Positions 1 to 35,613 of a stretch of DNA of 64,000 bases are shown piece after piece (within the stretch, counting starts at the first letter, position 1; each line of letters begins with the position of its first letter). Position numbers and translations under genes: made by a program. The notes under the pieces were generated by a model. It saw only the letters and a program-made list of their open reading frames with translations, searched no databases and had not been told where the DNA came from. Source of the DNA: Zancudomyces culisetae HAW-14-8 (Eukaryota > Fungi > Kickxellomycota); NCBI GenBank assembly GCA_052426225.1, contig JBNJNM010000021.1, forward strand, positions 2,914,001 through 2,978,000, given 5' to 3'.

Positions 1-1904
1 TACAAATTCTATGATACTGTCGGACGTGACCGGATGGAACACGTTCGTTCGTCGGGTTTCTCATGGTTACAAACTCTTGATTGATTATATCTTCCAAATC
101 ATGAAACGGGTCACGTGAGGAGGTCGGTTAAATCTCCATTGAAGACACTCCTGATCGGTCGCTATCTGATGAATAGCGACCATCGTCTCGGAACTGCTGG
201 ATGATGGCTGTCCTGAGTTGTTCATGAGACCTGACATTTAGATTTTAATAATTTTAATTTAATACTTTAAAAATATCTTTAGCCTTAGCACTATTATTTA
301 TTCAATATAATCTGTTTAAAACAAAGTCCTTTTGTTTAAATTTTCTTTATTTCCTATTCTTGTTGTATACTTTAAAACTACTAAAAGAGCTGAAGAGACT
401 TCTAATGAGATCTCTTTGGCTTTTATATATGTTAAACGCTATGTTTAAAACTATTTAATTCTTATCCTATTAATATTTATTATTCCGTTATCGCCTCATA
501 ATAGGCTTTGTTGTCGTTCTCATATTTTGACTAATTTCCATAGTGGATTTAATACTCTTTAATTTAATTAAATATACTAATAATAATAAATTCATTTTAT
601 GTCCTTAATTCATTTTGTAGTTTTTCTCTTGGATTTTGATCTGAATATTTCTGACATTTTGTGATCGGAATATACTTCATAGATTTGATAGATAATATAT
701 AAATAAAATGAACTCCATTATCTGACATTTTTAACATTTCATTTGAATTTTTATAGATTCCCAAGCAATTGGACTAATTATCTCTTATACCCAGAACACA
801 CGACAATAGGGAAATAACTATACATGTATAAAAACATAACCTTTTAGATAGAAAACCGAATGAATAAGTGAAGAGGACTTCAACTGCAAATATAAAGGCG
901 ACGAGAACGATAAAAATAATATAAGGCCTAGTAAAAAATTAAAGAGAAAGAATAACTAATGAGTTTATATTATAAATTTATTTTAGATTTATAATAGAAC
1001 GTATACTCCTTTATCAAGGAAGCAGTTAAACTAAAACAATATTCTGATACCAATAAGTGGAAGCTAGATAAATTAGTTATAATGATATAATTAGTAAATT
1101 CGATAGAGACGATATACAAATAAATCTAAACTGTAATTAAAACAATAAGTACAGCCTTCTTTACGGAATAATAAAATATATGTATATTTAACTACTGTTA
1201 ATTATAAATAAGTTGATAACACATTTAATGAAGTTAAATTTAGACTTAAAAGTAATAATCTGCTTGATATCTAATCAATGGTGTGAGATTAATACAGATG
1301 AAGAGGAATACAAACTAATCACCATAATTTCAAAAAATATATATCATAATTAAATATCTATAATTAATCTAGTAATTTAATTCTGTTCAAAAATAGAATT
1401 TGAAATAATAATAATAAAAAACACTTTAACAACATTATATAAATATTAAAATTTTATAAAATAACTAAAAAAAGTAAAAAAGTAGATGTTATTAAAGATC
1501 TCAACATTTTAAGCTTATCTGATTATATGTTTGGTATAACTCTGAAAATGAAAATATACTAAAGTCTCAAATCAGAAAGCTAGTTCAGATTGTCGTTAAT
1601 GAATGTGTAACTAATATACTAATGAAATAATAATAAAATACAAAAAGTAAACTAAAAAATAAACAAGTACAGATGATATTCATAATTAAAAAAAACTATA
1701 TAAAAGAATAATCTGATAATAAAGAAAATGTAATTCTTTTTATTAGCCACTATCGTATTTTCCAAACGATTAGATGTTGAACGACTTATAAATGTAAATA
1801 TATTTGATATAGATTGTCCTAAAGAGGTTATAGATTAAAATCAAATAAATTAGCAAGATATAGTTATGTTAAAATTAATAATTAAATCATAAAATAACAA
1901 AAAG

Positions 1905-1978
1905 TGATTTCTGCCGGACTCGAACCGGCGACCGTCTGTGTGTTAGACAGACGTGATAACCATCTACACCAAGAAATC
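1905..1978 (-). tRNA. tRNA-Val(AAC)
   Basis: Reverse complement GATTTCTTGGTGTAGATGGTTATCACGTCTGTCTAACACACAGACGGTCGCCGGTTCGAGTCCGGCAGAAATCA folds as a cloverleaf: acceptor GATTTCT/AGAAATC, anticodon stem TCTGT/ACAGA around CT-AAC-AC, T-loop GGTTCGAGTCC. A T5 Pol III terminator follows (AAAAA at 1899-1903). Confidence 0.97.
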
Positions 1979-3977: not shown

Positions 3978-4382
3978 GTTGTTGTTATATTTTTATTTTA
4001 ACTTAAACTTTTATTAACTTAAAATATACTTGAACTTTATCCTATTCTCTTACTATACCAAATATCCGTTAATATTGTTATTATTAACTATTGAATATTA
4101 GTATACTGAATAAAAGAACTTATTACTACTATTTATTTGGATTAAAGATGTGTTTTATTTAGTGCTATTTCCCTGCACTTATATACTTTTACTGCTAACT
4201 TAAAAAATACTATTAAAACTATACAAAGATACATAAACTTTACTACTGAAAGTTAAAGCATAAATTTGTATATACTGTTTAAAACTTGTAATAAAAATCA
4301 TAATACTAATTAAAAACATATGATTACTAAACTAAACTGTTTCAAGGTATGTCTTGGTTTACTATATGACAGTACCTCCCTC

Positions 4383-6829
4383 CTATGGTAGAATGCCCTC
4401 ATTCGTACCTATCTGTCTGAATCTTTTTAACTTTGACTTTAGCGTTGTGGTCACTTCTGGTATCATAAAATCCTTTTGATGATATTTTTTCAAGATGTCA
4501 CCATTAATTAAATCTCTGTTGCCTTTATCATCTCTTATTATGTAACAGCCTTTACTTAGTACTCTTTCAATCACATAAGGACCTTCCCATAATCTTTCGA
4601 GTTTCGCTTTTTCGTATTCGACCAGTTTTAATACTAAATCGCCTATTTTGAAATTATACATTTTAACCTTTTTATTATACCTAATTTCATTGTTTTTCTT
4701 TGCCAAAACTGATTTTGTTGTTCCCAGTTCTCTTAACTGTGGTAAATCGTCTTTAATGTTTTGTATCCTATTTTTTATTTCTTCTTCGATATTTGATATT
4801 TCACCGTTATAATTCCATAATGATGGTAAATCCAATTGTACTCCGTATAACATTTCTGCTGGACTTAAACCTGTTGATTTATTTTTCATCGTTCTTATGA
4901 CTAAAAGTGTTTTCCATAAATAACTGTCCCAATTTTTCTTGTCTTGTTTACATTGCTTTTGTAAAATGTTGACTAAAGTTTTATTGAACCTTTCTACTTG
5001 GCCGTTACTCTGAGGCCTGTAAGGTGAAGTCGGAGAATGATTTATGCCCAACCATTCATACACCTTTGTCGTACTTTCGCTTATAAAACTTGGTCCCCTA
5101 TCTGAAATAATTTTTTGCGGTATTCCATAATATTGTACTATATGGTTAATTATAAACGAAATAATAGTTTCACTTAATAAATTCTCAACTGGAATGGCAA
5201 TTGGCCATTTCGTACAATAATCGATTGCTGTGAGAATATATCTGTTTCCTGAATTTGTGATATGATTAAATGGGCCTACAGCATCAATCCCTATAATTTC
5301 AAACGGTTTAGTTACTTTGATTGGGATCAATGGATGTTTAAAAGTTCTTCCATCCTTGTATAGTTGACACAAATGACAACTTTGTACCATATCATATACA
5401 TTTTTGTATAAGTTATTCCCGCAATATTTTTCACTGATTCTTTTCCATGTGTTTTCGATCCCTTCGTGTGTTTCATTGTGTATGCTGTTGATGACTTCAG
5501 AATAATTATTTTCATGTAGTACTTCTTTAATTTTGTTTTTTATAACTTTACACAATTTTCCATCTACAAGTTGATATTTACTTGAATTTTTAACTATATT
5601 GTTTTTATAATTTTCATCACAATTGCTTGGAAATGATAAGTCTGCTAAATACTGTTTTAAGCATTCGTGTTCGGTAAAATCCATTGCATAAACGTCGATT
5701 TCATCTTTATCGGTTTCGTATTCTTCGTTTGTTAATCTCGATAAGCTGTCTGCTGGATTATTTTTACCTGGGATATGTTCGATATCAAACTCAAAGTTCC
5801 TTAAAATCATTGCCCACCTGGCAATCCTACCTGTCAATTCTGTACCGTTAAATATCTGTAATAATGCTTTATGATCAGTACGTATAACAAATTTTCTACC
5901 CCATAAATAATACTTAAATTTTTTTATCGCCCAAACTACCGCTAATGCCTCGAGATGACTTATTGAATAGTTTTTCTCGGCTTTATTTGTAGTCCTGCTG
6001 GCGTATTCAATTACTCTTCCTTGTTGTTGCGATAGCACTGCTCCTAACCCATTTATCGACGCATCTGTGGTTATTATAAATTGTTCTTCCCAATCTGGAT
6101 GGTCTAGAATTGGTGCTTCAGTAAGTGAGTCTTTTAGTTTTTCCAATGCTTGGTCTTGTTCGTGTTCCCACTTCCACGGCTCGCTTTTCTTAAGTAGTTT
6201 TGTAATTGGTTGTGCAACTTTTGCATAATTCTGTATATACTTTCTGTAGTATCCAGATAATCCTAAAAGTGATTGAACCTCTTTTATATTTGTCGGTTTC
6301 TTGATATTTTGTATCGCTTCGACTTTATTTTTGCTAGTACCTATCCCTTTCCCGGATATTACATGCCCTAAATATTCGATACACTTTTGTCCCATTAAAC
6401 ATTTTTCCCTATTTAACTGTATACCATTTGTTTTTAATAAATCAAATACCAACTTAACATCCTCAACATGGTCTTTTTCATTTTTAGAATATATAATTAT
6501 ATCATCTATAGAGACAACTGCCTTTTTCCATAAAACAGGCTTTAAAGCTAACTCCATAGATCTTTGGAATGTTGAAGGACTGTTAGTCAGTCCGAACGGC
6601 ATGACATTGTATTTATAACTACCTCCCCCCGGTATGGCGAATGTGGTTTTATCCTTATCCTTTTCAGACATTTTAATCTGCCAAAATCCATTGATAGCGT
6701 CTAGCGTACTGAAAATTGTTGCACCTGCTAGAGCCATAAATAAGTCTTGAATAACCGGTAACGGGTAGGAGTCCTTTTTTGTAACCTTATTTAATTGACG
6801 GTAATCAGCACATATTCTTAAACTACCGT
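4383..6829 (-). pseudogene. Element E gag-pol, 3' part (RT, RNase H, integrase)
   Basis: Removing T and one TSD restores KKNG-SLRICADYRQLN in frame; MPFGL, SIDD (FIDD in relatives), TDAS, HHCC, D-D-E and WEGPY motifs; colinear with 30714-35093. Confidence 0.92.
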
Positions 6830-6842
6830 TGTCATGAACTGA

Positions 6843-6928
6843 TTCTAGAATGTTCGAAAACGTTCTAGAATCATCTGATTTTATTCCGCAGTAATGTTTA
6901 GAATGTTGGGAAACATTCTAGAACATTA
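6843..6928 (+). promoter_or_regulatory. Heat-shock-element-like array in U3 of element T (copy at 12143-12228)
   Basis: TTC-ta-GAA-tg-TTC-ga-AAA-cg-TTC-ta-GAA: six alternating nGAAn units in register with one mismatch, plus a degenerate second copy; TATAAAA at 7127. Confidence 0.65.
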
Positions 6929-7300
6929 CCGAAAATTCACATTATTTCTCAATTTTTCTTACGTAATAATTTTCACATGTTTAATTTTATTAGCATTCGA
7001 GTTTGATTTTTGTTTGATTACTAATCCAATTTGATTAGTAATCAAACACGTTTTTCTTTAGCTTGCATATTTAGCTATTCCGCAGTTTTCTAGTGATTTT
7101 GTTCAAAAACCAAGGCTGGAAAAAAGTATAAAAAGGGTACAATTTTCCTGTCTTGGATTCAGTATCTAGTATCTTGTATACATTCATACAATAAACATTA
7201 ATAATAATAAATATAACACTCCAGACTCCAGATCTTGACACTATACTAGATCAAAATATTATATTTATTATTTTCTGAAACCAGCCTAAGTATTTAAACC

Positions 7301-8521
7301 ATGGAACCGTTTAGCCCAGAACAAGTTGAATTCCTCAACAAAGCCGCCGTGACCCTGCCAGCAGTTGAAGAAGCCCTCCAGCAACTACTAATAAGAGTAG
7401 AAAAAGCCGAGTCTGCCATCAAGGAACACCCTGCCACAGTATCCAAGAAAATTTATGACAAGGTCAAAGCAGACACCACCAAGTCCATCCAGACCATTCT
7501 TGACTCCATGAACAACCTCCAGTCCGATATCCAGAATTCAGACCAGCTAACCCAAAGCGCCATACAGGCCAACCAGTCGGAAATCCAATCCCTTCAGGAC
7601 CAGCTCAGTACCCTCAGGGACGAAGTCATACTTTATATAACTGAAAACCGTGCCACCAAAGTTGCTAGTACTTCTGAACCTAGTATCAAAGTCAGACACC
7701 CAGACACATTTTCAGGAAAACCCTCCGCCTGTTCCAACTTCTTTTCACAGCTTGCTCTCGTCTTTGCCGCTTCACCCGACAAATTCAACACTGACTCAAG
7801 TAAAGTCTTGTATGCCATCTCCTACCTCTCAGGAACACCATTCAATTACATGGAACCTTACCTCATGAAAGCAAACCTTCCAGAGTCTGACCGTCCTGCC
7901 ATTCTCTCCAACTACAATCTGTTTAAAGAAACTATCACTCGTGCCTTTGGTGATCCCAACCCTATTGAGAATGCTGACAGGGCAATCCGCCAACTCAGAC
8001 AAACCACTTCCGTTGCCGCATATGCCACCGAGTTTAGACGCCTACAGATGTTAATTGACTGGAACCAACCACCTTTGATCTCACAGTTTCTATCCGGTCT
8101 CAAGTACAACGTATCCCAGGAACTCAGCCGTAGAGAACCAATAGAAGACATCGATACCCTGATCTCTACAGCCATCCAGATCGACAACCGCCTCTTCAGC
8201 CATCCACAACGTCGTCAACCTCCAGTTAACCCCACTGCAACTATGCCACCCAAACCCACTGCTTACAACCCGTTTGCTTCACCTGTTTCTGCACCATCTA
8301 CCACTCCACCAGCTAATAGTGATGGACCTCAACCAATGGATCTCAGTACCGCTTCATCGACTAGAAGACCACCACTTACTCCTGCTCAAAGAGCATACCG
8401 TATCGAAAACAACCTCTGTCTCTATTGTGGCGGTAATGACCATTTCAACATCAACTGTCCAAAGAAACGCCACAACATCTCCAGCATTACACCAACACAG
8501 GAAAACGACACCGCCCAGTAG
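7301..8521 (+). CDS. gag: Element T Gag
   Basis: PDTFSG capsid motif, LRQTTSVAAYATEF major-homology-like motif, DGPQPMDL, CLYCGGNDHFNINC zinc knuckle. Confidence 0.93.
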   Translation: MEPFSPEQVEFLNKAAVTLPAVEEALQQLLIRVEKAESAIKEHPATVSKKIYDKVKADTTKSIQTILDSMNNLQSDIQNSDQLTQSAIQANQSEIQSLQDQLSTLRDEVILYITENRATKVASTSEPSIKVRHPDTFSGKPSACSNFFSQLALVFAASPDKFNTDSSKVLYAISYLSGTPFNYMEPYLMKANLPESDRPAILSNYNLFKETITRAFGDPNPIENADRAIRQLRQTTSVAAYATEFRRLQMLIDWNQPPLISQFLSGLKYNVSQELSRREPIEDIDTLISTAIQIDNRLFSHPQRRQPPVNPTATMPPKPTAYNPFASPVSAPSTTPPANSDGPQPMDLSTASSTRRPPLTPAQRAYRIENNLCLYCGGNDHFNINCPKKRHNISSITPTQENDTAQ

Positions 8522-8559
8522 ACAGTAAGGGACACCTATTGGGCAACTTAGCCAGTCCC
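8500..8559 (+). other. Predicted -1 ribosomal frameshift signal (slippery site plus H-type pseudoknot)
   Basis: G GAA AAC (8500-8506), 6-nt spacer, stem 1 GCCCAGTAG/CTATTGGGC (8513-8521/8536-8544), stem 2 GGGAC/GTCCC (8529-8533/8555-8559). Confidence 0.75.
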
Positions 8560-11500
8560 CACGCCACTGTAACCACTCCTGTTTCTGACACCCAATCTCC
8601 TGATAAACCAAACACCTTGACCATTCCTGTAACCATCTTGTTCAAGCACCACCACATCAAAACCTACGCTATGGTTGACTCTGGTGCTTCGTCCTCGTTC
8701 ATTGACGCCACCTTTGCTCTAAAAAACAATCTACCATCTATATCTAGAAAAATGACAATCACTCTCGCTGACGGATCAAAGCTTAGATCCAACTCTGCCT
8801 CCCAAGTAACACTAAAAATCAACGATAACCATCTCGAAAGTATCTATCTGCAACAACTAGATCTTGGATCTTCACCGATCATCCTTGGTCTTTCCTGGCT
8901 TCAACAACACAATCCTGACATCAACTGGACTGAGAACATAGTCCATCTGCCGTGTACCTTGACTTCTTGTGGGCCCAACCATGTCAACCTAGACATCTCT
9001 CTTGTGGGCTCAAACCAGTTTAAAGAACATCTGAAGGCACCAGACACTGTCTATGCTGGTGCAATTACCGTGAACAATCTTGAATCCCTTGTAGCTCCTG
9101 AATCTTGTGAAAATCTCTGTTTTGTCTCTGAATCTAATCCTGAAACCCCTGATACTCCTGTAATCCCTGAAAAGTATAAAATGTTTGAATCTGTCTTCTC
9201 TGAATCCCAATCTGCCAAACTGCCTGAACATCGTCCATATGATCATACCATTCCTTTGCTTCCTGACTCAAAGATACCATATGGCCCATTGTACAACCTC
9301 TCCCAATTGGAACTAAAGACCCTGTACGACTATATTCAGGAAAACCTAGCCAATGGTTTTATCCAACGCTCTGAATCCCCGGCTGGGGCTCCCGTCCTAT
9401 TTGTAAAAAAGAAAGATGGTAGTCTCCGGTTGTGCGTCGACTATAGAGCCCTGAATAAGATCACTGTCCCCAACCGTGCAGCCTTGCCACTCATCTCTGA
9501 AACCTTGGATCGGCTTGGCAAAGCCAAGATATTCACCAAGCTGGATATGAAATCCGCATACCACATGATCAGGATCTCGCCTGGTGAAGAATGGAAGACC
9601 GCGTTTCGTACACGCTACGGCCACTTCGAGTATAAGGTCATGCCGTTTGGCCTTATGAATGCTCCAGCCACGTTCCAGTCCTTTGTTAACGATCTCTTCC
9701 GTGAATACATTGATCAATTCCTTGTTGTGTACATCGATGATCTGTTAATCTACTCAGATGATATCGATAAGCACTATGACCACGTCTGCCTTGTCTTGAA
9801 GAAGCTTCAGGAACACAATCTCACCCTCAAGCTAGAGAAATGTGAGTTTGATGTACAATCAGTACAGTTCCTCGGTTTTGTAATTGGCCCCAACGGAATC
9901 TCTATGGATCCATCTAAAGTATCCAGCGTTACCGAATGGAAGACACCAACTTGTGTCCGTGACGTTCAGGTATTCCTTGGCCTTACAAACTTCTACCGCC
10001 GTTTTATTCTGAACTACTCCAAGATATCTCTGCCACTCACCGCCTTGTTGAAAAAAGGTGTCCAATTCCAGTGGACACTCAAAGCTGAAGAAGCTTTCGC
10101 CTTGCTAAAAGAAACCATGATCAGTAACCCAGTCTTAGCTCACTACAATCCTGACCAGCCTTGTATCATCGAAACCGATGCATCAGATTTTGCATTAGGT
10201 GCCATTTGCAGCCAGTATGACAACGAGGGACAGCTCCACCCTGTTGCATACTACTCCCGGAAACTCCTGCCTGCTGAAGTGAATTACCAAGTCTATGATA
10301 AGGAACTGTTAGCAATTATCGACGCTTTTGCTCACTGGCGTCACTACCTTGAATTTTCTGTACACCCAACCGTTGTTATGACCGACCATAAAAACTTGGA
10401 ATACTTCTCCACTACCAGAAATCTTAGTCGCCGCCAAGTCAGATGGTCAGAATACCTCAGTAACTTCAACTTTGTCATCAAGTACCGCCCTGGAAAACAG
10501 AACACTGCCGCCGATGCTCTTTCTCGGAAAGACCAACCTTGGAAGGGGGGTGACTCCCGTACTGACCAAAACAAAATAACTTTGCTACCTCCTGAAATCT
10601 TCTTGAAGTCCATGACTAGTACACCTGTTGAACCTTTGTCCTCCACGCTCATGAACAACATCAAGTCACTACAACCCAAAGACACGTACTTTGGACCCAT
10701 TTACACTGACTTATCCAAGAAACCTGATTCCCATGAAAAGTACACTCTTGTTGACAATCTTCTGCACTATGATGGACTAATCTGTATCCCCTCGGACGAC
10801 AACATCAAAAGAACTATCCTGATTGAATGCCATGATTCCCCTGCTGCCGGCCACTTTGGAAATGCAAAGACATACGAACTTGTATCTCGCAACTTTTACT
10901 GGCCAACCATGAGAAAATATATCAAAGACTACATCTCTGGTTGCGATACCTGTCAACGCAACAAATCCTCTCGCCATAAACCATATGGCTACCTCGCTCC
11001 ACTTCCCGTTCCTGATTCACCTTGGTCATCTGTTTCTGTCGACTTCATCACTCAGCTACCTCCATCCAATAACTTTACTGCAATCTGTGTATTTGTGGAT
11101 CGCCTTACCAAGATGGCGCATTTTGTTCCCACAACCAATGAAATTGATGCTGAAGGTACTGCAGATCTATTTATCCAACATGTCTTCTGCAAACATGGGC
11201 TCCCTAAAGACATCGTATCTGATAGAGGTGTGACCTTCAATTCATCATTCATGCGTACTCTAATGAAATCACTGAATATTGAACAGAAAATGTCCACCGC
11301 ATTCCATCCTCAGACAGATGGACAAACTGAACGCGTAAACTCAGTATTGGAACAGTATCTCAGGTGCTACATTGATTACCAACAAACTGATTGGTCAAAG
11401 TGGTTACCAATTGCCGAATTCGCCTACAACAACACATCTCATGCTTCTATTAAGACCACACCTTTCTACGCCAACTATGGCTTCCATCCACGCTTCTCAG

Positions 11501-12117
11501 TCACAATTCCTCGTACTCAAGTTTTAAATCCTGCCTCCTCTGATAGATCCAAACGACTATCTGATATCCACCAAGAACTGAAGTTTAACATCTCCCTTGC
11601 CCTTGAAGACCATGAGAAATACTACAACCGAAAAGTATCATCACAACCTGACTTCAACATTGGTGATCTTGTCTATCTATCAACTAAAAACATCAGGACT
11701 CAAAGACCAAGCAAGAAGCTTGACTATCGGAAACTTGGTCCATTCAAAGTATTGGAAAAGATTGGACAAAGATCATACAAACTTCAGCTACCACACACAA
11801 TGAAGATTCACCCAGTATTCCACGTCAATCTCCTTGAACCTTGTAAACCAGATCTGATCCCAGACAGACTATCAAAACCGCTTCCACCTGTGATCATTGA
11901 TGGTCAAGAAGAATATGAAGTTGAGAAAATCCTAGATAGTAAAATATTTGGTAGAACTGTCAAATACCTGGTACACTGGAAAGGATACCCAGACACTGAA
12001 CGTACCTGGCAAACATATTCTGACTTAGCAAATGCAAAATATCTTGTCACTGAATTCCATCGTCACCATCCTGAAAAACCAAAGCCACCACAAATGCTTC
12101 ACGGAGCTCAGCCTTAA
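8500..12117 (+). CDS. pol: Element T Pol (PR-RT-RH-IN-chromodomain), -1 frame relative to gag
   Basis: MVDSGA, YIDD, TDAS, HHCC/DDE, GPF, and chromodomain EEYEVEKILD...YLVHWKGY...TW. The frame is open back through the gag stop to the slippery site at 8500. Confidence 0.95.
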   Translation, partial: GKRHRPVDSKGHLLGNLASPHATVTTPVSDTQSPDKPNTLTIPVTILFKHHHIKTYAMVDSGASSSFIDATFALKNNLPSISRKMTITLADGSKLRSNSASQVTLKINDNHLESIYLQQLDLGSSPIILGLSWLQQHNPDINWTENIVHLPCTLTSCGPNHVNLDISLVGSNQFKEHLKAPDTVYAGAITVNNLESLVAPESCENLCFVSESNPETPDTPVIPEKYKMFESVFSESQSAKLPEHRPYDHTIPLLPDSKIPYGPLYNLSQLELKTLYDYIQENLANGFIQRSESPAGAPVLFVKKKDGSLRLCVDYRALNKITVPNRAALPLISETLDRLGKAKIFTKLDMKSAYHMIRISPGEEWKTAFRTRYGHFEYKVMPFGLMNAPATFQSFVNDLFREYIDQFLVVYIDDLLIYSDDIDKHYDHVCLVLKKLQEHNLTLKLEKCEFDVQSVQFLGFVIGPNGISMDPSKVSSVTEWKTPTCVRDVQVFLGLTNFYRRFILNYSKISLPLTALLKKGVQFQWTLKAEEAFALLKETMISNPVLAHYNPDQPCIIETDASDFALGAICSQYDNEGQLHPVAYYSRKLLPAEVNYQVYDKELLAIIDAFAHWRHYLEFSVHPTVVMTDHKNLEYFSTTRNLSRRQVRWSEYLSNFNFVIKYRPGKQNTAADALSRKDQPWKGGDSRTDQNKITLLPPEIFLKSMTSTPVEPLSSTLMNNIKSLQPKDTYFGPIYTDLSKKPDSHEKYTLVDNLLHYDGLICIPSDDNIKRTILIECHDSPAAGHFGNAKTYELVSRNFYWPTMRKYIKDYISGCDTCQRNKSSRHKPYGYLAPLPVPDSPWSSVSVDFITQLPPSNNFTAICVFVDRLTKMAHFVPTTNEIDAEGTADLFIQHVFCKHGLPKDIVSDRGVTFNSSFMRTLMKSLNIEQKMSTAFHPQTDGQTERVNSVLEQYLRCYIDYQQTDWSKWLPIAEFAYNNTSHASIKTTPFYANYGFHPRFSVTIPRTQVLNPASSDRSKRLSDIHQELKFNISLALEDHEKYYNRKVSSQPDFNIGDLVYLSTKNIRTQRPSKKLDYRKLGPFKVLEKIGQRSYKLQLPHTMKIHPVFHVNLLEPCKPDLIPDRLSKPLPPVIIDGQEEYEVEKILDSKIFGRTVKYLVHWKGYPDTERTWQTYSDLANAKYLVTEFHRHHPEKPKPPQMLHGAQP

Positions 12118-12540
12118 GAGGGGAGGTCGTGTCATGAACTGATTCTAGAATGTTCGAAAACGTTCTAGAATCATCTGATTTTATTCCGCAGTAATGTTTA
12201 GAATGTTGGGAAACATTCTAGAACATTACCGAAAATTCACATTATTTCTCAATTTTTCTTACGTAATAATTTTCACATGTTTAATTTTATTAGCATTCGA
12301 GTTTGATTTTTGTTTGATTACTAATCCAATTTGATTAGTAATCAAACACGTTTTTCTTTAGCTTGCATATTTAGCTATTCCGCAGTTTTCTAGTGATTTT
12401 GTTCAAAAACCAAGGCTGGAAAAAAGTATAAAAAGGGTACAATTTTCCTGTCTTGGATTCAGTATCTAGTATCTTGTATACATTCATACAATAAACATTA
12501 ATAATAATAAATATAACACTCCAGACTCCAGATCTTGACA

Positions 12541-14478
12541 ACCGTTTTTCTTATGAACAATGACGACTGGTGAACACCATTCTGCGTCGCTTGGTTCGAT
12601 TATTTTCCTGTTCAGCGTTTCTTTAAGTTGTTCTTCAACTTTTTCTTGAAGTCTATAGGGTATCCTATATGGCTTCTGTTTGATAGGCTTTTCATCTGTC
12701 AGCTCAATCTTATGTTCTGTTATAGATGTCTGTTTTAATTCTGAGATGTCATCTACAAAGATGTCATCAAACTCTTCAATCACTTCAGCTAGTTTACTAT
12801 TGTTATCTGCTTCTAAGCCCTTTGGTGCCTCCTTAACCACGTAATACATTTCTGTTTCATCCTCTTGAATTTGTGTAGTAGTGGTTAACCTGGTAATGAG
12901 CTCTGAGTTTTCAATTGGAAATCTTATCTCTGGTACTTTCAGATTAATTATCACTCTGTGTTTGAGAAGCCAGTCGGTTCCTAAGATCAAATTTCCTTCA
13001 TTTTTTTCCATAACAACCAAGTTTGCTGGAAGTATAACCGAAGCTATTTTCACTGGTACATTGTTAATCTTACCCAATGTTGGATGTTTTTTACCATCCG
13101 CAGTTATAATAATTTGAATATTTCTGCTATCAATATCTAAACCCCAACATTCTACCATTTTAGGACCAACAACTGAACAAGCTGCGCCAGTATCAATGAC
13201 TGCTGAAATATCTTGTCCAAAAATTTGTACTTGTGCTCTACAATTGGTAATTTTCCTTTCATGTATTGAAATCTCATTAATTTCTGAAGTATCCTTTTTG
13301 TTGCATAGTCCAACTAACTCTTTTGCTAGTATAGGTGAACTATCTAACAGTTGTATAAGGCTAATCTTTGGATATACCTTATTCAACTCATCCCTTAATG
13401 AAAATGCCTTTGTACCGTTTTGTATCCTTGGGTTATACCTTTTTTGTATTTGTACACTCAGCGGTACATCTTCATCAATTTCCTCAACATTTTTTTCTAC
13501 AGTTTTTTCTTTAATAAAATTTTCTGATAAAGTTGATGTTGCTGCAGTGTTGTTTCTTTTTCTTGCTCTTATTTCAGTAGTGGTATCATTTAATGAATTG
13601 TTTTTTCTTTTTTCAACCGCAAATAGCTGCTTACTGTCTGATTCTTTTTCACCTACAATGTCAATGAAATTTACGTTAGCATTTATTTTAGAATTACTAT
13701 CTTGATTCTTCTGAGCTTTCCATTTTTGGCATTCGAACTTCCTATGTCCTTCCTCCTGGCAATAGAAACACTTGTAAACATTGGTATTCTCGGGTCTATA
13801 ACTTTTCAATTTTTTATCTACTACTTCATCCACTTTAGCTAAAAGACTAACACTTAATTCCTCGAATTTCCTAATCATAGCTGCATACGGCTCTTTGTCT
13901 TTTGACATATCCTTAATGGTTCTACCCTGCCTACTCGCAGCATTTTTAGATAGTTCCTTCATTTTGCTTACTTTATCTTTGTACTCACTCTTCCTATATA
14001 CTCCTTGTTCAGACTTCTCCAACTTAGATATGAACTTTATCACCTTGTCCCAACTCTTGTATCCTGTTTCTTCCAGCTTTTCCTTATGCTCTGCCTTCAG
14101 GATACTAACTAGTAAATCCAGTTTGATATCATCCTTGGTTATTCCTGCTTTTTCACACAACAGTTCTAGATCGTATTCCAATTCCTCTATGCTGTTGTAG
14201 TCGGAGTGTTTGATGTTTCTCAACTTATCCCAGACTTGACACTTGGTCTCCTTGATGCTAAACTTTTCAATAAATAGTTTACTGAATTCATCCCAACTCG
14301 TGAAATTCTCTTTGTTTTTCTTATACCAAATGGCTTCCTTCTTGCCAAGGTAAAGTCTCACAAGATCAATCCAGTCCCCTTTATCCCAATTGTTTTGTTT
14401 AGCAACTAACCTATAGTTATCCGCCCAGTCCTCGGGGTCAATACCCATATCAGATTCAAAAGTCTTCGGTGTGATCAT
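12541..14478 (-). pseudogene. Element E gag-pol, 5' part (Gag, CCHC knuckle, protease, start of RT), interrupted by element T
   Basis: CFYCQEEGHRKFEC knuckle, AVIDTGAA protease, WCSPVVIVHKKNG. The last 15 aa of the ORF-track protein are read-through into the inserted LTR. Confidence 0.92.
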
Positions 14479-14778
14479 TGTATCTAATTGCTGTCTTTTT
14501 AGAAATATATTATCTGCACTTTGTTATGTTATTTTTCTAGGTATATGCCTAGCTGGGAGCGCCACTGTTATATTTTTATTTTAACTTAAACTTTTATTAA
14601 CTTAAAATATACTTGAACTTTATCCTATTCTCTTACTATACCAAATATCCGTTAATATTGTTATTATTAACTATTGAATATTAGTATACTGAATAAAAGA
14701 ACTTATTACTACTATTTATTTGGATTAAAGATGTGTTTTATTTAGTGCTATTTCCCTGCACTTATATACTTTTACTGC

Positions 14779-17700
14779 AGTGGATATTATTTCACTAAGC
14801 CAATTTTGCCCCTGTTTCATCTAAATTATTATTATTATTTAGTATTAGTAACATTATGATTAAGTATTGATGGAAGTTTTTGTACGGGGTAACTCGGAGT
14901 TTTTATGAAGTCTTTACTTATCTTTTTTATTTTTCTTTTTTGGATATATTTTAGGAGATATTTTTTTACACACTCACTTTTAGGGAAGAGAACTAAGATA
15001 ACATTATATTTATTAAATAAAAGATATTAAAACTAAAACCCTTAAACAGAGCCACAAACAACTTAGGCGTTATCAGCACCAAGGGGAAAGTGGATAGTTC
15101 CAAACAGACATATAGTCAAGAGATTTCCTGTTCTAAAACCCCAATAAAAGAAGTTAAAATGGCAGAAAAGATCGATCCCACATTGTTACCACCAAAATGG
15201 GAAGGTGAGGAAAGTACCGGCATCGAACAATGGACAAGAAGGTTTTCGATGGGTATAGATATTATGGGAGTAGATGAGAAGAAAGCCATTCAGCTTTTAG
15301 GGATATGGTTACAAGGAAGAGCTAATGACTGGATGTTCCATGAAATGGAAGAAGAAGAGGTAAGCAAAAGGAAACTAGCGGAATGGTTAAAGCTTCTTAT
15401 TAAAGAAGTCAAGAGCTGGCAAAAAACAACAGCTGGCAGCATAGAAGGACTTGCAAAGATGAGGAAGGCGACCACAGAAAATATTGGTGAGTTCACTTGA
15501 AGGTTTATGAGATATTCAGATACCATCCCCGAAGAAATGAAGACAGAAATGCAGGTGAGAAAAATATTCATAAACTGTTTAGCAGTGTGGGATGAGGCCA
15601 TTCTGTGGAAAATAGCTGAAGATTTGGATAGTATAAAGCTAAAGGACCTAGTGGACAAAGTAATCAACCTGAGTAAGGTGAGACAGATCTGGAAAGATCA
15701 AGGAGCCGAAGAAACACCGAGTACTAGGAAAACCGCTTTGGAAATAAGTCAGAAAGATCCTGAAACTGACTTGTTACAACAAAAATTAGAGGATTTAACT
15801 GAGACGGTGAAAACCTTACTAATTCAAAGTAAGAAGGAAAGACCCAAAGTCACTTGTTTCAATTGTGGCAGAATTGGACACAAGGCGAGATTTTGCAGAA
15901 GTCAACCCAGTACTCACCCAGTATCGGTAAAAAATAACTCAGAGGAGGCCAAAAAATACACGGACAATCGACTACCCGTTCATAAGGAAAACTCCATGCT
16001 AGCAATATCCGCTGCCGCCACCGCCCATACATTGGAACCCCACTACCTTAATTCCGAGGATTATCCACACAAGTCACCACAGTCTCAACCATCAGAAAAT
16101 CTAATAGACAGAACTATCAAACCAGTGCGTTCATTGAAGTTAAAGGTAAAGAATAAGACCAAGAAGAAGGTAAAGAAAAAGCCGGCAAAAGAGTGCATTT
16201 TATTTAACAAATTGTTAGGTACACCAGTTCCTGTATCATGGGGTGAGTATTTCGACTCACATCCGAAAGAAAGAAGACCTGTCTATAATTCTTTCCGGGA
16301 ATACATTCGGAAGGGATCAAAGAAGAAGGCCATGTTAATAGAAACAGCACTCACCGAAAAAGGAAACACAGACCCCTGTTACATCTGGACTAGGATAGCA
16401 AATAGGACTGTACCTTTATTTGTGGATTCTGGGGCTTCCTATTCACTCATGCGAGCATCGCTGGTAAGAGAGTTGGGACTAAAGAAAACAAGATTGGAAA
16501 ACCCTATCTCACTAACACAAGTAGGAGGAACCCATTTAGAAGTCTCAGAGGCCACAGATGCAGTAATAAGTTTGGATGATGACGTAGAAATAGGAGTGAG
16601 ATTTTTAGTCACACCAACATGTGCGGTGCCAGCTATCTTTGGCTTAAACACCTGCAAGGAGCTGGGTGCAACCTTAAATTACAGGGACAACACCATTGAC
16701 ATAGTGACCGGAGGCAGTAAATACCGTTTCCAGTTAGTTAGTCAGGACAATTTAAACGGCATAGGGGTATCCGACGAAGAATACTCTGGTGACGAGACAG
16801 ATGAGGGAAACTACACAAGAATCTTCCTCGGATTCCGAAGGCAACATAATAAGCAAACCTATGTTTTACTCCTTAATGAGTGCAGATTTGACAGAGTCAG
16901 GTTTTCCAGAAGCTGTAGAACAAAACTTAGAAACCGAAATGCAAAGTCAGTCAGACATGTGTCCAGAGATAACAGAAATGTTAAAATTATTTAGCGATAT
17001 TTTTGAAAATAAAGTTGGAATAACTACAATAACAAATTCCGAGTTCAACATATGTATAGAAGAAGGAAAAGGTGCAATAGCCACGAGGTTACGACGATAT
17101 TCAGAAAACGACGCGAACGGAAATAGGTCGACAAATCAAAGAAATGAAGGAAAAAGGCATAATCAGGGAATCGTTTTCAGATTGGGCATCAGCAATTGTA
17201 CTAGCGAAAAAGGCCGATGGGACAGCGAGGTTTTGCGTCGATTACAGAAAAGTCAACGAGATCACGATAAAGGACCGATTCCCGATTGCTCGGATCGACG
17301 AATGTTTGACATCCCTCTCAAAAGGTAGAATATTTTCAACTCTGGACCTTAACTCGGGTTACTGGCAGTGTGAACTCTCAAGAAAGGCTGCACCTATAAC
17401 CGCGTTTATTAGTCCATGGGGGCTTTTCGAATTCTGTGTTTTGCCGTTCGGATTATCCAATGCGCCGGCTCATTTCAGCAGAATCATGGAAAGGATTTTA
17501 GCTCCATTTTTGTTTCGCTTCGTTGTGGTGTATTTGGACGATATTGCAGTTTTTTCAAGGAATCTAAACGAACATATTATTCATCTCCGAGAAGTTTTCA
17601 AAGCACTAAGAAGTAACAATGTTTCGCTAAACATGAAAAAATGCAGATTCGGAACAGATAATTTCAAGTATCTGGGACACCAAATAACTCCAGAAGGGAT

Positions 17701-19840
17701 TAAACCGATTTTAAATAAAATAGATAAGTTAGAAATTAAAACCAAACCGAAAAATATCAAACAGGTACAATCTATTTTAGGACTATTTAATTATTTTCGA
17801 AAATTCATAGATAGCTATGCAACCATAATCAAGCCGGTGCAGGACCTTATAAAACAAGGAAGAAGATGAAGATTCAATTGGACGGTAGAATGTACGGCTG
17901 CCGTGGAGAAGGTAAAAATGATACTGTCGTCAGATGCGGTACTAGCCCAACCAGACCAAGATAAGAAATTCTTACTGTCAACGGACGCCTCTTCGATAGC
18001 AGTGGGTGCCGTACTTGAGCAGGAATTTGACGGGACGTTACGACCAGTTGCATATTATTCTAGACGACTAAATGGTGCCGAAAGTAGATATTCAGCATAC
18101 GAGAGAGAACTTTATGCTATTATTTTGAGTATAAAACATTTTCGACATTTCTTGATGCCGAAGCCATTCACAGTTTATACCGACAATTCAGCTGCAAAAT
18201 ACGTTTTGACAAGGCGAGAACCTTCCTCTCGTGTTGCAAGATGGTTAAATTGGTTATCTGAGTACACTTTCGATATACACCATCGAAAAGGGAAAGACAA
18301 CGTTGTAGCTGATTTTTTAAGTAGACCAATGCTAATAGCCACTGAAAACGTTAACGTCGAAAACAGAGATGCATTAAAATCCAGCGTTATAGAAATGTTA
18401 AACTCATTTGAGATAAGTTATACAAGTGAATATATTTTAAACACATTAAAAAATTATATTGTCATACAAGAAACCCTTTATAGAAGGACTAATAAGCGTT
18501 ATAGAGAGGTAGTAAAGAGTAAAGTAGAAGCTCTAAATATTATACAGACGCTACATGACGGGCTAGGACATTTGTCGTTTATGCCCATATGGCATTGGGT
18601 TCAAGCGAAATATTGGTTTCCTGAGATGTTCAAGCTGGTGAAAGCGTACGTTTCGTCGTGCCACAATTGTCAAGTTTATAACATAAGAAAACCAAAATAC
18701 AATTTTCAAGGTAAGATGCCTGTTTCGGGGATCTTCGATGAGTGGGTCCTAGATTATCTTGGGCCTTTCCCAATCTCCTTGAGTGTGAACCGGTATATAC
18801 TTGTGGGTGTTGAGAGACTTAGTCACTTCCCGGTAGCTTTCCCATCACCCGACATAACTGGAATATCGACAGTCCGCCACCTCAAGAATCTCGTTGCGAT
18901 TTTCGGTATACCCGCAGCATGTAGAGTAGACAATGCTACTAGTTTTCAAAACGAAAAGGTTAGGGATATGTGCAGTAAATATAGCGTGAAATTGGAATTT
19001 AACGTACCGTATCAACCCGAATGGATGGGACTCGTTGAACGAATGAATAGTAGGATCAGATATAGCTTGGCGAAGAGCTGCGAAGGAAATTACGATACCT
19101 GGGACGACCATTTACCTGAAATACTACTAGGAATTCGTAGTTCACGGAACAGGACGACGGGAAGAACACCATACGAGTTGCTCTATGGTGTCCCCCCATC
19201 TTTAACAGGAAAAAAGTTATCTACTCCATCCGTCAACTTACGAGAAGTAGAGCTGAGCGGAGTTAGGGTAGAAAGATTGGAAGAGGTTAATACTGCTGTG
19301 CTTTCAAAAAACGAATATAAATATTCTGTCGGTGACCTAGTACTTATATTGTCCGGAAAGATTAGAAAAAATCAACCGCATAATAAACTGTTACCTCGAT
19401 ATACAGGTCCGTGGAAAGTCAAATCCGTCTTACCACATCATTTATATTCTGTAGAAAACGAGGTAGGAAAGGGAGGTGTATATCACGCTTCGCGCATTTC
19501 AAAATATGAAATGAGAACTTAAAACTTTGTTTTAAGTTGCCTTTCGGGAGGGGAGAGTGGATATTATTTCACTAAGCCAATTTTGCCCCTGTTTCATCTA
19601 AATTATTATTATTATTTAGTATTAGTAACATTATGATTAAGTATTGATGGAAGTTTTTGTACGGGGTAACTCGGAGTTTTTATGAAGTCTTTACTTATCT
19701 TTTTTATTTTTCTTTTTTGGATATATTTTAGGAGATATTTTTTTACACACTCACTTTTAGGGAAGAGAACTAAGATAACATTATATTTATTAAATAAAAG
19801 ATATTAAAACTAAAACCCTTAAACAGAGCCACAAACAACT
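14779..19840 (+). mobile_element. Ty3/gypsy element S with AGT...ACT termini, nested in the 5' LTR of element E
   Basis: 285-bp LTRs 14779-15063 and 19556-19840, identical by eye; 5-bp TSD ACTGC (14774-14778, 19841-19845); PPT GGGAGGGGAG; E LTR sequence resumes exactly after the TSD. Confidence 0.94.
15159..19522 (+). pseudogene. Element S gag-pol with an in-frame TGA (15498-15500) and about three frameshifts (near 16790, 17110, 17870)
   Basis: CFNCGRIGHKARFC knuckle, FVDSGA, YLDD, TDAS, HHCC, DDE and YTGPW motifs spread over ORFs 15090, 15507, 16789, 17144 and 17903. Confidence 0.85.
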
Positions 19841-20024
19841 ACTGCTAACTTAAAAAATACTATTAAAACTATACAAAGATACATAAACTTTAGTACTGAA
19901 AGTTAAAGCATAAATTTGTATATACTGTTTAAAACTTGTAATAAAAATCATAATACTAATTAAAAACATATGATTACTAAACTAAACTGTTTCAAGGTAT
20001 GTCTTGGTTTACTATATGACATTG

Positions 20025-21328: not shown

Positions 21329-21331
21329 GAC

Positions 21332-24300
21332 TGTCGTATGAATTATTGGATATTACAATCCGACTATTTCATTTTTTCCCCTTGTGGTTTTTTGGGAATA
21401 TGATAGGTTGTAGTTCTAATCGTTATCAATTTTATTTCTTAATCTATTTTAGTTTTATTTAAAGAAGTTTAATGTAGTAATAGAAAATCTTTTTTTTTTA
21501 CAATTAATAAATCAAAACATAATAGATACTAGTATAACATATTGAAAGTACCTTTATACAATAACAAGTATAAGAATAGAAAAAGTTACAATAAGCAAAA
21601 ACGTTGGAGTAATTATTCCTACCACATTTGGCGCTCCCAACTAGGCTGAAACAAATCTTAATTAAATTAAAGCTATTCTAACCAAACCAGTTTTATTATA
21701 TATTACAACTACATATATATAATATCAACCATAACCTATAATTTTATAATATCAAAAAGTAATAATAATATAAAAATGAACAGTATACAAAACTAAAAAA
21801 TTCAAGGTAAGTTTAAATTAAACAAAAAAATATATATATTTATCTATCATAACAAAACATAACAAAATGAAAAAATCAAGTTATAAAATACTGGAACCTT
21901 CAGAGTTCAACGGATCACTATGGCAGGATCCCGAATATTGGGTAAAAAAGTTTGAGATTTACATGAAAAAGAACGATTTTGAAGAAGCAGAGTACGTGGA
22001 TTGTGTGGAGTCATATTTAGGCGGTAAAGCAAATCAGTGGTACATTATCTATCAAGATAAATTCAAGGATTGGACAAAGTGCAAGGAGTTATTCTTGAAA
22101 CAGTTTAAAAGCAAAGAAAGGGAGTTAGCTTCATGGGAAGAGCTCCAGGGATTCAAACAGGATAGCATGGATATTCTAGAGACTGCATCTAAACTGCAAG
22201 TACTGTTCAAAGCCGCAAGTATAACAGAAGAAAAAGATAAATTACGTTACCTAACCGCTTGCTTAAGACCAACATTTAAAAAGCTTATTTTTGAAAAAGG
22301 TACTGAATCATGGGAAGAAGCAATAAATCATTTAGTTAGACATGAACAACTAGAAAGTATGTGCAACGATACTTCAACGGGTAGCGGAGGAAATCTTTTT
22401 GAAAATGTTACTAAGGAAAGGCTAATACAAGAAGCTAGGTCTATAAAAGATGATCCAGAAGTTATGTATGAAAAGATAGTCAAAAAGTTTGACGAACTCA
22501 GTATCAACATTATCAATAGTATTAAGGCAGGCAACAGCAGACCACCACCAAAAAGTCCTTTCTGTTTCGAGTGTAGGGAGCCGGGACACTGGCCATACCA
22601 ATGTCCTAGGAGGGAAGCTAATCCAAGAACCGGACCAAGTGTAGCATCGGGAAGTAATGCAATGCCTGTGAATACTAACAAGAGGGAAGTAAATTTTTTG
22701 GAAGTTGAAAATGATATCGTAGTCAGTCAAGTTTTTGAGTGTGAAGCAAATGAAGCTGAAATCTATGCAGCAGAAAAGAGGAAGAATGAATTACAATCAG
22801 AAAAAGAAGCTAAAAAAAGAAGAGAAGGCGAGTCAACAATAGAAGTTAAGCCTAATAGGGACATCCTGAAACCTAGAATTCAGCGGAAGAAAGCAGTACC
22901 TATTAAATTTACAACTGACAAAGATGAATATTCAATCAAGAAAAAGCTACAAGGCATACAAGCTAATATAAATTTGGCCCAGCTTCTAGAAGCTTCACCA
23001 CAGGTGCGAAAGGAGCTAATTAGTTACGTTAGAAGGGGTGAGGAGTATGAAATTAAAGAGGTGAACAGCATTGAAAATGTAAGTTCAAACTGCAAGGCTA
23101 TAATAAGTATATTTGGAAGAAACTACTGGGCTATATTGGACACAGGCGCTGCCTGCTCGGTAATGTCAAATGCATTTGCTGAAGTGTTGGGATTAGATAT
23201 TGACAAAGAATCTAACCAAATTATTGTGACAGCAGACGGGAGGAAACACGGGACTAAGGGAATAATTTCAGAGGTACCACTTACAATTGCAGGGCAAAGG
23301 TTTCCAGTGGACATGACAGTTATGGATCAGAAAACTCATGTGTTAATCCTTGGAACAAACTGGTTTAAAAGACACGGAGCAGTTATCAACTTAAACAGCA
23401 ATGAGTTAGTGTTGAACAACGAAGAATATGAAATATCCCTGTCAATTTCAACGCGCAAAGACATAACAATTGAGTCAAAAGACAATGAGTATGAGTTATA
23501 TGGTGTGGGAATAGAGAAGATAGAGAAACCGGAGCTACAGGAAGAGGAGATAGATGAGGAAATACAAAGGATTATAGATGCACACAGCGATCTTATGGCA
23601 ACAGAATTGTCAGAGCTAACACAGACGGATAGGATACTTCATGAAATAGACACTGGAGAAGCAAAACCTGTTAAATCTAAGCCATATCGAGTACCTCACT
23701 ACATGAGAGAAAAACTAACAGAGGAGATAAACAAAATGGAAGAACAAGGTATTATAACTCCTTGTGTTTCTGATTGGTGCGCGCCAGTAGTGGCGGTCTG
23801 GAAAAAGAATGGGAAGATTCGACTATGCTCAGACTACCGTAAGTTGAATGCGGTCACTAAGAAGGATCAGTATGCACTACCAGTAATCGAAGAGATATTT
23901 ACTGCGGTTGCTGGAGCAAAGATATTTAGTACGCTGGACGCATTAAGCGGTTTCTGGCAGGTGAGGATGAAGGACTCAGATAAGCCAAAAACAGCTTTTG
24001 CGATCCCAGGAGGGGGCATGTTTTGTTATAATGTCATGCCCTTCGGTCTTTGTAATAGTCCTGCGACTTTTCAAAGACTGATGGAAAGGGTATTATCATC
24101 AGTACTATGAAAATCAGCTTTAGTATTTATTGATGATATTATAATATACTCAAAGTCCAAATTACAACATACAAAAGATTTAGAGGAGGTGTTCAGATTA
24201 CTTAGAGACAATAATATAAAGCTTCATAGAATTAAGTGTTCATTTGAAAAAACCAGATTAGAATATTTAGGACACATTATCAGTGCAATAAAATTAAGAA

Positions 24301-26587
24301 CTCGCGAGTCAAAGGTAAAAGCAGTTAGGAATTTGGAACATCCAAAGTCTATCAAGGAGCTTCAATCATTTTTAGGCCTAACCGGGTATTATAGGAAGTT
24401 TGTTCAGAACTATGCGCAACAAGCTAAGCCATTACATCAACTGTTAAAAAAAGATACCAGATATAACTGGACGCCTGAGTGTAGCGAAGCAGCCGAATAC
24501 TTATAAAATTCAATAATAAAAGCTCATGTATTGATTTTTCCAAACTCGGAGGAGCGATTCGTGTTGACAACGGACGCTTCAAAAAACGGAATAGGTGCAA
24601 TCCTTTCCCAAAAAATAAATAATCAAGACCATCCCATTGAATTTGCTAGCAGGTCCTTAAGTCCAGCGGAGAAAAATTATTCGTCAACCCACTTGGAAGG
24701 ACTAGGAGTGGTTTGGGGAGTAACTAAATTTAGAAACTATTTATGGGGTAGACAATTCGACATAGTAACCGACCATTCTGCGTTGGTAAGAATTTTTGAC
24801 TCGAAAGACTTAAATGGAAGGTTGGCCAGATGGAGTATTATTTTGTCCGAGTATGACTACATTATCAGACATAGACCAGGGAGAATTAATCCTTCAGACT
24901 ATCTTTCTAGAGATGAAAATGTTGAAAAAACAAATATAGGCATTAGAGAAGGTGAAGTTGAAGTTGAATATTCACAATGGATAACCTATAATATCAAGCT
25001 ATAAAACACTATTTGGAAACAGGTAATTATCCACCAGGAGCGGACGATGACTTTAGGAAAAAGCTCAGAAACAAGGCATTAAAGTACAGACTGCATGAAG
25101 ATAGACTACATAGAAACTCAGCTAAGTTCGGTATGCGGGAAGTATTAACCGAGGTAAATGCTGAAGAAAAAGTAAAAGCGATACACTTGGAGAGACATGA
25201 AGGAATAAATAATACATTTGAGAGAAAAAAAAGATTGTATACAGGACCAAATTTATTGCAAGTTGTAAAAAGGATTGTGGAGAGCTGTGACCTTTGCAAA
25301 CAATACAAAGGAAGTGTTACAAGGAAAACAAATCTTATTCCAATACTGGCAAGAAAACCGTTTGAAATACTGGGACTAGACGCGGTTGGTCCAATAAGCC
25401 CTATTTCTAATAATGGAAACCGATACATATTGTCAGCCGTAGATTACCTAACTAAATGGCCCATCTGTAGAGCAGTAAGTAATATAAACACTGAAACGGT
25501 TATTAACTTTTTGATATATGATGTAGTTCAGTATTAATGTGTACCAACACAACTGATAACAGACCGTGGATTTAATTTTCTGAGCGACATCTCAACCGAC
25601 TTCTATTAATTATTAAATATTCACCACACACCCACTACCGATAACGACTGCAAACTAACGGTCAGGTAGAACGGTTAACCAAAATATAAAAAATCTACTA
25701 TCAAAACTTTGTCAACATGACAAAGCGAACTGGGATAACTATTTTTGGAAGTTGCTGTTAACTTTAAGAACAATGAAAAATCGTAATACAGTCTTTAGTC
25801 CATCAGAATTACTTTATGGTGTCGAGTTGAACACTCCAACATCATGGAAACCAGCTACATAAGTCGAAGACTTTGAGGAGGCCGTAAAAGAAAGAATCGA
25901 ACATATCAGCGTGGATCTTCCGGATATTCGCCTTACAGGATTTGAATCAATGGTAAAAAACAAGAATTACGAAAAAGGAGTCTATGATAAAACCGTGCGA
26001 CTGGCGAGTTTCGGAAATGGGGACAAAGTTTTAAAGCATGTGGAACAAACGAGTTCAAAGTTCGATCCCAAGTGGGAGGGTCCGTACACCATCATACGAG
26101 TACACGGAAATGGTACTTTACAATAGCAGACGCCCAAAGAAATAGAGACGTTGTAAACGGGGACAGACTTAAGAAGTACCATGAGCATAAAAATATGATA
26201 CCAGAAATACAAACAGCGAGACTAAGACCAACACTAAGACAATTTCGACAGCCGTCAGTTGCTTCATGGGGCACTCAGAACTAAGGGGGAGACCTGTCGT
26301 ATGAATTATTGGATATTACAATCTGACTATTCCATTTTTTCCCCTTGTGGTTTTTTGGGAATATGATAGGTTGTAGTTCTAATCGTTATCAATTTGTTTC
26401 TTAATCTATTTTAGTTTTATTTAAATAAGTTTAATTCAGTATTATAAAATTCTTGGTCCTTTACAATAAATAAATCTAAACATAATAATACTAGTGTATT
26501 ATTTTGAAAGTACCCTTATACAATAACAAAATAAGATAGAAAAAGTTACAATTAAGCAAAAAGGTTGGTAGAATAATTCCTACCACA
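21332..26587 (+). mobile_element. Degenerate Ty3/gypsy element K (E/R lineage); LTRs 21332-21626 and 26295-26587
   Basis: Direct-repeat LTRs; PBS TGGCGCTCCCAACTAGGC (21629-21646); PPT AAGGGGGAGACC; AGAC on the left, AGA on the right. Confidence 0.93.
21867..26284 (+). pseudogene. Element K gag-pol with multiple stops and frameshifts
   Basis: CFECREPGHWPYQC, ILDTGAA, FIDD, TDAS and integrase fragments in ORFs 21867, 24189, 24531, 25013, 25911 and 26072. Confidence 0.9.
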
Positions 26588-30238: not shown

Positions 30239-30243
30239 CAGAC

Positions 30244-35539: not shown

Positions 35540-35611
35540 GGGGAATTAGCTCAGTGGTAGAGCGCTCGCTTTGCATGCGAGAGGCCGCGTGTTCGATCCT
35601 CGCATTCTCCA
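35540..35611 (+). tRNA. tRNA-Ala(TGC)
   Basis: Acceptor GGGGAAT/ATTCTCC with G3:U70; anticodon stem CTCGC/GCGAG around TT-TGC-AT; GTTCGATCC; one U-U mismatch in the T stem. Confidence 0.95.
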
Positions 35612-35613
35612 CT

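Follow-up and report, generated by a model that had tools for sequence, protein, structure and literature searches.

Ty3/gypsy elements (Metaviridae) are primed by a tRNA's 3′ acceptor stem (PMC1181622), and the profile of the family by the International Committee on Taxonomy of Viruses places next to the 5′ long terminal repeat (LTR) a site that can reach 18 nt and pairs with the 3′ end of a tRNA (PMC7879559). This is the usual gypsy state rather than a criterion, as the self-priming Tf1 and Tcn1 are gypsy elements. Priming by cut tRNAs is described from Ty1/copia elements. Hemivirus-type Pseudoviridae (Drosophila copia and 1731, yeast Ty5 and Osser) use initiator tRNA-Met with a 3′-OH at nucleotide 40 (PMC1181622, PMC5371799). 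Sites for an A-to-I edited half tRNA-Ile are found in 92% of 260 Bianca copia elements, and half-tRNA primers in plants are placed "exclusively" in Ty1/copia lineages by the same source (PMC6317226). In rust fungi, anticodon-loop priming, including by tRNA-Ile-AAT, is described for Helenus terminal-repeat retrotransposons in miniature and for Copia-18_PHord (PMC10886601). Here we describe element S, a gypsy element in a 64-kb window of the insect-gut fungus Zancudomyces culisetae (Harpellales) HAW-14-8 (GenBank assembly GCA_052426225.1, contig JBNJNM010000021.1, positions 2,914,001 to 2,978,000, forward strand; the window is this whole stretch, and coordinates below refer to it), which carries beside its 5′ LTR a site complementary to the anticodon arm of tRNA-Ile. 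We consider it likely, from comparison of the site with tRNA genes and with related families, that minus-strand synthesis of S is primed by a 5′ fragment of mature, inosine-edited tRNA-Ile(IAU) with a predicted end at position 42–44.

By its Pfam domains S is a Ty3/gypsy (Metaviridae) element, as a sequence-only reading of the window had held, because pol runs in the order protease, reverse transcriptase, RNase H, integrase (PR-RT-RH-IN) and the domains are of the gypsy type: a CCHC knuckle, an Asp protease, RVT_1, RT_RNaseH/RT_RNaseH_2, Integrase_H2C2 and rve. No chromodomain was found in S by Pfam. Two LTRs, a target duplication and a polypurine tract complete the element, and the relatives of its Pol are gypsy-type polyproteins. 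The element is laid out as follows.

14774..14778, plus strand: left target-site duplication, ACTGC
14779-19840, plus strand: element S
14779..15063, plus strand: 5′ LTR of 285 bp, starting AGTGG and ending CAACT, identical to the 3′ LTR
15064..15065, plus strand: TA between the LTR and the core site, opposite tRNA positions 44 and 43
15066..15081, plus strand: predicted primer-binding site GGCGTTATCAGCACCA, complementary to tRNA-Ile positions 42 down to 27
15074, plus strand: C opposite wobble position 34, which pairs with I or G and not with A or U
15159..16994, plus strand: gag (CCHC knuckle) and protease, with an in-frame TGA at 15498-15500
16765..19522, plus strand: pol, comprising reverse transcriptase, RNase H and integrase (zinc-binding H2C2, rve core)
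~16770-17110 and 17867-17869: damage in pol, namely two frame changes in the former interval and an in-frame TGA at the latter
19546..19555, plus strand: polypurine tract
19556..19840, plus strand: 3′ LTR, identical to the 5′ LTR
19841..19845, plus strand: right target-site duplication, ACTGC

The boundaries could equally well be drawn with a duplication of 6 bp, in which case the LTR is shorter by one base. The LTR termini of S are AGT...ACT rather than TG...CA, and both ends (14779-14781 and 19838-19840) have apparently been altered together; the LTRs of two related families, described below, end in ACA, unlike those of S.

Directly after the 5′ LTR, S reads TA and then the 16-base site, not TGG, and this first observation of the sequence-only reading is confirmed at 15064-15081. 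We compared the site with a set of 145 distinct tRNA genes called in the fetched loci, which the search patterns had enriched for this arm. The claimed complementarity to the tRNA-Ile anticodon arm, with C opposite position 34, holds: the site has a single mismatch, at position 34, with 13 Ile(AAT) and seven Ile(TAT) genes, and it matches three Ile(GAT) genes exactly (16/16). A better match to a tRNA 3′ end, which would have spoken for ordinary priming, was sought in the same set and not found: the best 3′-end match of the S site has 6 mismatches in 16, versus 2–3 for the neighbouring elements D2 and D8. Matches with at most one mismatch to any 16-mer of the set occur at five other places on both strands of the window, and the chance of such a match at the four allowed offsets past the LTR is ~3e-4 (uniform expectation). 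The reverse complement of GGCGTTATCAGCACCA folds into a 4-bp stem with a 7-nt loop (z −1.5, which alone is not significant). In the TA that precedes the core, the T opposite position 44 pairs with the usual A44, and the A opposite position 43 mismatches the usual A43. When either A or G was accepted at position 34 in a scan of 91 viral loci, 15 of 15 tRNA genes with this arm were AAT, and 13 of these have G26 together with A43-A44; G26 is present in 21 of the 23 distinct tRNA-Ile genes carrying the arm.

Element S belongs to a group of relatives in which the site recurs. Its Pol matches a distinct protein group at 34–42% identity, and in a FastTree analysis of 49 Pol regions over 661 columns (P0048 dropped) S and 14 proteins form a clade with SH-like support of 1.0, separate from the other elements of the window. 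Four of the 14 are named from Smittium. The tree holds no named reference lineages, so we assign S to no named gypsy clade. Metagenome contigs were scanned for the exact 16-mer close to an AC(A/T) motif, with spacings of 0–4 allowed, and of the 87 loci found, three (L114, L125 and L167) lie just upstream of a clade-type gag. L114 and L125 are 99% identical and represent one family, and L167 a second. Both families read AACA-TT-GGCGTTATCAGCACCA, with the 16-mer 2 nt past an LTR-like ACA end and 33–66 nt before the homologous gag; the site is conserved in these two related families at the same spacing, and the 16-mer is invariant in the three aligned families. L125 and L167 were assigned by blastx and a clade profile rather than by the tree: the top eight matches of L167 and the top nine of L125 are all clade members or members of their clusters, and Pfam returned nothing for the four short gag/pol pieces. 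Among S, L125 and L167, gag identity is 23–31%, and the only significant DNA similarity is the LTR end plus the site. Features that are independent of the search pattern are the 2-nt spacing, the gag downstream and a non-C base opposite position 26 (3/3 families).

The remaining 79 metagenome loci, besides the three gag loci and five with tRNA-Ile(GAT)-like genes discussed below, gave no gypsy match; copia genes were not scanned for. Scans with position 34 or the stem left free recovered no LTR element in 35 loci of genome contigs or in viral sets of 91, 34 and 29 loci, and their tblastn matches comprised one tandem-repeat contig (the match being a tRNA gene) and one bacterial insertion sequence. 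An apparent resemblance of LTR ends to tRNA variable loops was discounted as a product of the search pattern itself. A protein-based search of viral contigs gave one distant gypsy element, L001.

In the mechanism that we propose, mature tRNA-Ile(IAU) would be packaged, its anticodon arm opened and annealed to the site over positions 27–42, and the tRNA cut just 3′ of the anticodon stem. C15074 would be kept because of its pairing with I34. Inosine is the most likely partner of this C, since eukaryotes generally lack Ile-GAU and deaminate A34, turning AAU into IAU (PMC8007984, PMC10275265), and since an A34 tRNA-Val gene is present in the host. With G standing in for I at position 34, the duplex gains 6.4 kcal/mol in stability over one with A or U; a true I:C pair is less stable than G:C. 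In all three families pairing would halt at position 27, plausibly from the usual dimethylation of the adjacent G26; a dimethylated G26 would block both pairing and reverse transcription. Among 160 characterised eukaryotic tRNAs, G26 is dimethylated in 127 (PMC10275265). The boundary at 27 fits either copying up to such a block or a plain absence of selection beyond it.

The sequence-only reading had proposed a cleaved tRNA-Ile(IAU) primer ending near position 42, and its choice of partner is borne out as the most likely one. As for the end, 42, which leaves a 2-nt spacer, is the sole position without a mismatch in all three families, and 43 (a CCA-like terminus) and 44 also fit the two families with TT. 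Where it further claims that the site records host editing, selection for I:C pairing is the better reading. We favour selection over a copying of the tRNA, by a modest margin that is our own estimate, because neither Ty1 (PMC5371799) nor Ty3 (PMC7472051) inherits its primer sequence. The earlier interpretation is therefore partly supported. Its inosine feature is already in print for Bianca copia (PMC6317226) and is hence not new; what appears to be new is the gypsy setting, whose unusualness had been overlooked, the conservation in three divergent families and a register shifted by 2–4 nt.

For an intact tRNA, modelled with a viral tRNA gene, the duplex is predicted to extend across the LTR end to position 47 in all three families, one mismatch included. 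This is a weak hint that the tRNA may anneal first and be cut afterwards, and the reach to 47 is partly forced by the AC of the LTR ends. A bolder and rather doubtful extension is that S represents an undescribed gypsy clade (Harpellales gut fungi and environmental contigs) in which cut-tRNA priming arose independently of copia, and in which the element's own RNase H, not a host nuclease, cuts intact tRNA-Ile(IAU) at 42/43 after annealing across the LTR junction, leaving a CC/CCA end that mimics the tRNA tail. If true, such an element-made primer would stand midway between ordinary tRNA priming and the self-priming of Tf1, and would depend on A-to-I editing by the host.

Several points weigh against priming of S by edited tRNA-Ile. 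The S copy is broken, with two in-frame TGA codons and two frame changes. Either it was mobilised in trans very recently or the assembly is in error here; several of its relatives are single gag-pol proteins. The tRNA comparison uses tRNA-Ile genes from outside the host, the host's own lying beyond the set, and tRNA gene calls gave no tRNA-Ile gene in the 64-kb window. The A opposite position 43 in S may be a private change. The scan for relatives required the 16-mer including the C, and since it demanded the full 16-mer, the C opposite 34 cannot be called invariant, nor can the share of the clade that carries the site be estimated. The L125 and L167 contigs have no 3′ LTR, and their LTR ends are placed by the ACA motif. 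Protein-based locus searches of viral and metagenome contigs (0/17 candidates in the latter) gave no clade locus. Finally, and weighing most against the editing claim, tRNA-Ile(GAT)-like genes that carry the exact arm occur in five of the 87 metagenome loci (L100, L112, L122, L141 and L147; called by ARAGORN in 3/5), and some eukaryotes may thus have a genomic G34.

These GAT-like genes would permit the same internal priming by a genomic tRNA-Ile(GAT), or by RNA from a tRNA-Ile-derived repeat, with no part for editing. The match would then be perfect (16/16), and the loci are eukaryote-like, four of the five lying near other eukaryote-type tRNA genes. The five copies vary among themselves in both the D and the T arm, however, much as members of a decaying repeat family would, and lie on contigs other than those of the elements; from their sequences they are possibly such a family, or retroposed copies of an edited tRNA. 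All three divergent families, probably in different hosts, would need a GAT gene, yet Ile-GAU is generally absent from eukaryotes and the host has an A34-type tRNA-Val gene, which makes this account improbable. Priming by the tRNA-Ile(UAU) isoacceptor with a mismatch at position 34 would draw on an arm that is common to seven distinct viral Ile(TAT) genes, but C cannot pair with U34 and the duplex is weaker by the 6.4 kcal/mol given above. A chance resemblance, for its part, faces the ~3e-4 expectation for S alone, with conservation not yet counted, and we give the isoacceptor and chance together very little credence.

The remaining alternatives leave the anticodon arm out of priming. The site could be an ordinary 3′-end site for an unusual tRNA whose match to the arm is coincidental, and L125 and L167 do show TGG at a 1-nt spacing, as the ordinary D2 does. 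S itself reads AGG, though, and this placement of the S site needs a G61, whereas C61 is present in 128 of 130 genes with a readable T-loop and G61 in none; together with the contrast in mismatches between this kind of site (5–6) and D2 and D8 (2–3), this leaves the 3′-end placement very unlikely. Alternatively, the pairing with tRNA-Ile might do no more than provide an anchor, a signal for packaging or a target for silencing, with synthesis starting from another 3′ end (self, protein or host primer). Priming is here deduced from sequence, and some gypsy lineages self-prime or have no tRNA site. Against this, the longest self-priming complement in the S LTR is 6 nt and none of at least 8 nt occurs anywhere in S, as compared with 9 nt in a chromovirus of the same window, and a constant distance of 2 nt to the LTR end is to be expected if a primer terminus sets it; we regard a purely non-priming role as improbable too. 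A second, bipartite site of at least 10 nt for a single tRNA-Ile gene was not found in S. Priming by a cut, edited tRNA-Ile(IAU) remains the account that we prefer.

Set beside the described systems, S combines features that are otherwise separate. Like Bianca, a plant Ty1/copia lineage, it has an internal anticodon-arm site for tRNA-Ile, an A-to-I explanation and a 5-bp target duplication; unlike S, Bianca has the copia domain order and plant hosts (PMC6317226). The register of S was compared with Helenus and Hemivirus-type sites rather than with Bianca sites. Because integrase follows reverse transcriptase in S, it is not a member of the Bianca or Hemivirus-type copia groups, although by the proposed mechanism it would work as Bianca or fungal copia elements do. 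Helenus and Copia-18_PHord share with S a fungal host and the tRNA-Ile(AAT) anticodon loop, and by our own reading of the consensus sequences in PMC10886601, two Ile-type Helenus sequences also have a C opposite position 34. Helenus and Copia-18_PHord differ from S in being copia-mobilised and in a site that starts right at the LTR end, opposite position 40. Hemivirus-type elements resemble S in a primer cut within or beside the anticodon arm (in S, a predicted one), but their end at 40 lies directly at the LTR end, while the pairing in S runs to 42–44. In the S clade, position 44 faces the first base past the LTR, and the shared core reaches 42; the register is therefore 2–4 nt from the copia one (a pairing end of 42–44 versus 40), and this shift points to an origin independent of copia half-tRNA priming.

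Compared with other Ty3/gypsy elements, S shares the LTRs, a site beside the 5′ LTR, the polypurine tract and the PR-RT-RH-IN order, but its site does not pair with the 3′ end of a tRNA and its LTR ends are AGT...ACT. Tf1 and Tcn1 are, like S under the proposed mechanism, gypsy elements whose primer comes from RNA cleavage, and RNase H cutting inside a structured RNA has a precedent in them. They prime with their own first 11 nt and have a chromodomain, whereas S has neither. The Candida gypsy element Tca3, for which PMC4139406 gives an undefined "distinct mechanism" of minus-strand priming, could be a precedent. For CsRn1-type gypsy elements, priming by a cleaved tRNA-Trp finds no support in PMC2582038, which describes a 3′-end site. 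We found no paper on anticodon-arm priming in gypsy elements or on this clade, in a search with subscription journals and Repbase entries outside its scope.

Reviews and surveys treat cut-tRNA priming as a copia trait, and give gypsy elements the states of 3′-end priming or self-priming. A conserved anticodon-arm site in another register, carried by a gypsy clade, would mean at least two origins of the trait, on reverse transcriptases that differ greatly. The cut at 40 for Ty5 has been attributed to host RNase P (PMC5371799), and a cut at 42–44 differs from it, which gives a testable handle on the nuclease that makes the primer. Searches with tRNA 3′ ends only, as in PMC13524379, would miss such sites, so gypsy families listed without a site may hide this mode. 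The inosine link, already published for Bianca, would tie transposition to the host tRNA deaminase.

Element S sits in a nest of LTR elements in the first 35 kb of the window, where an older gypsy element on the minus strand holds it within its 5′ LTR. An ordinary TGG site is present 1–2 nt past the LTR in three tRNA-primed neighbours. The following features accompany S.

30242-35531, 21331-26587 and 3983-20021: three related gypsy elements whose primer sites are of the ordinary CCA-end kind
1904-1978, minus strand: tRNA-Val(AAC) gene
starting at 35540: tRNA-Ala(TGC) gene

D2 retains a single intact frame of 1466 codons. The 3′ ends in the tRNA set nearest to the neighbour-element sites are those of tRNA-Asn, and a "tRNA-Arg" label for the ordinary elements of the window was not confirmed. 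A chromovirus at 6830-12540 has identical 411-bp LTRs and no tRNA-type site, and a 9-nt complement of its post-LTR sequence lies at LTR position 335, which is consistent with Tf1-like self-priming. With the chromovirus, S and the TGG elements, three priming modes would share one 35-kb nest.

Between 1904 and 35686, the nest lies wholly upstream of two tRNA genes, both of which point away from it. The end of D2 is ~8 bp short of tRNA-Ala, and the motif ACAGTTGT is common to the stacked LTR junctions. These three features suggest a Ty3-like family with tRNA genes as its targets and repeated insertion at one place. At 35540-35686, tRNA-Ala(TGC) and tRNA-Lys(CTT) stand in tandem with a gap of 1–2 nt, followed by a T run, and may possibly form a dicistronic transcript. 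Further along, an ABC transporter occupies three overlapping frames at 38340-42796 (introns or frameshifts), and the glutamyl-tRNA synthetase encoded in the window is 100% identical to a Zancudomyces culisetae protein, with Smittium proteins next at 54–56%. Among the tRNA-Ile loci recovered outside the window, L183-L214 (15 overlapping loci on one contig in a bacterial metagenome-assembled genome) come from a 2188-bp tandem repeat that contains a tRNA-Ile(AAT) gene of eukaryotic type and a piece of gypsy pol, and the contig is probably eukaryotic contamination.
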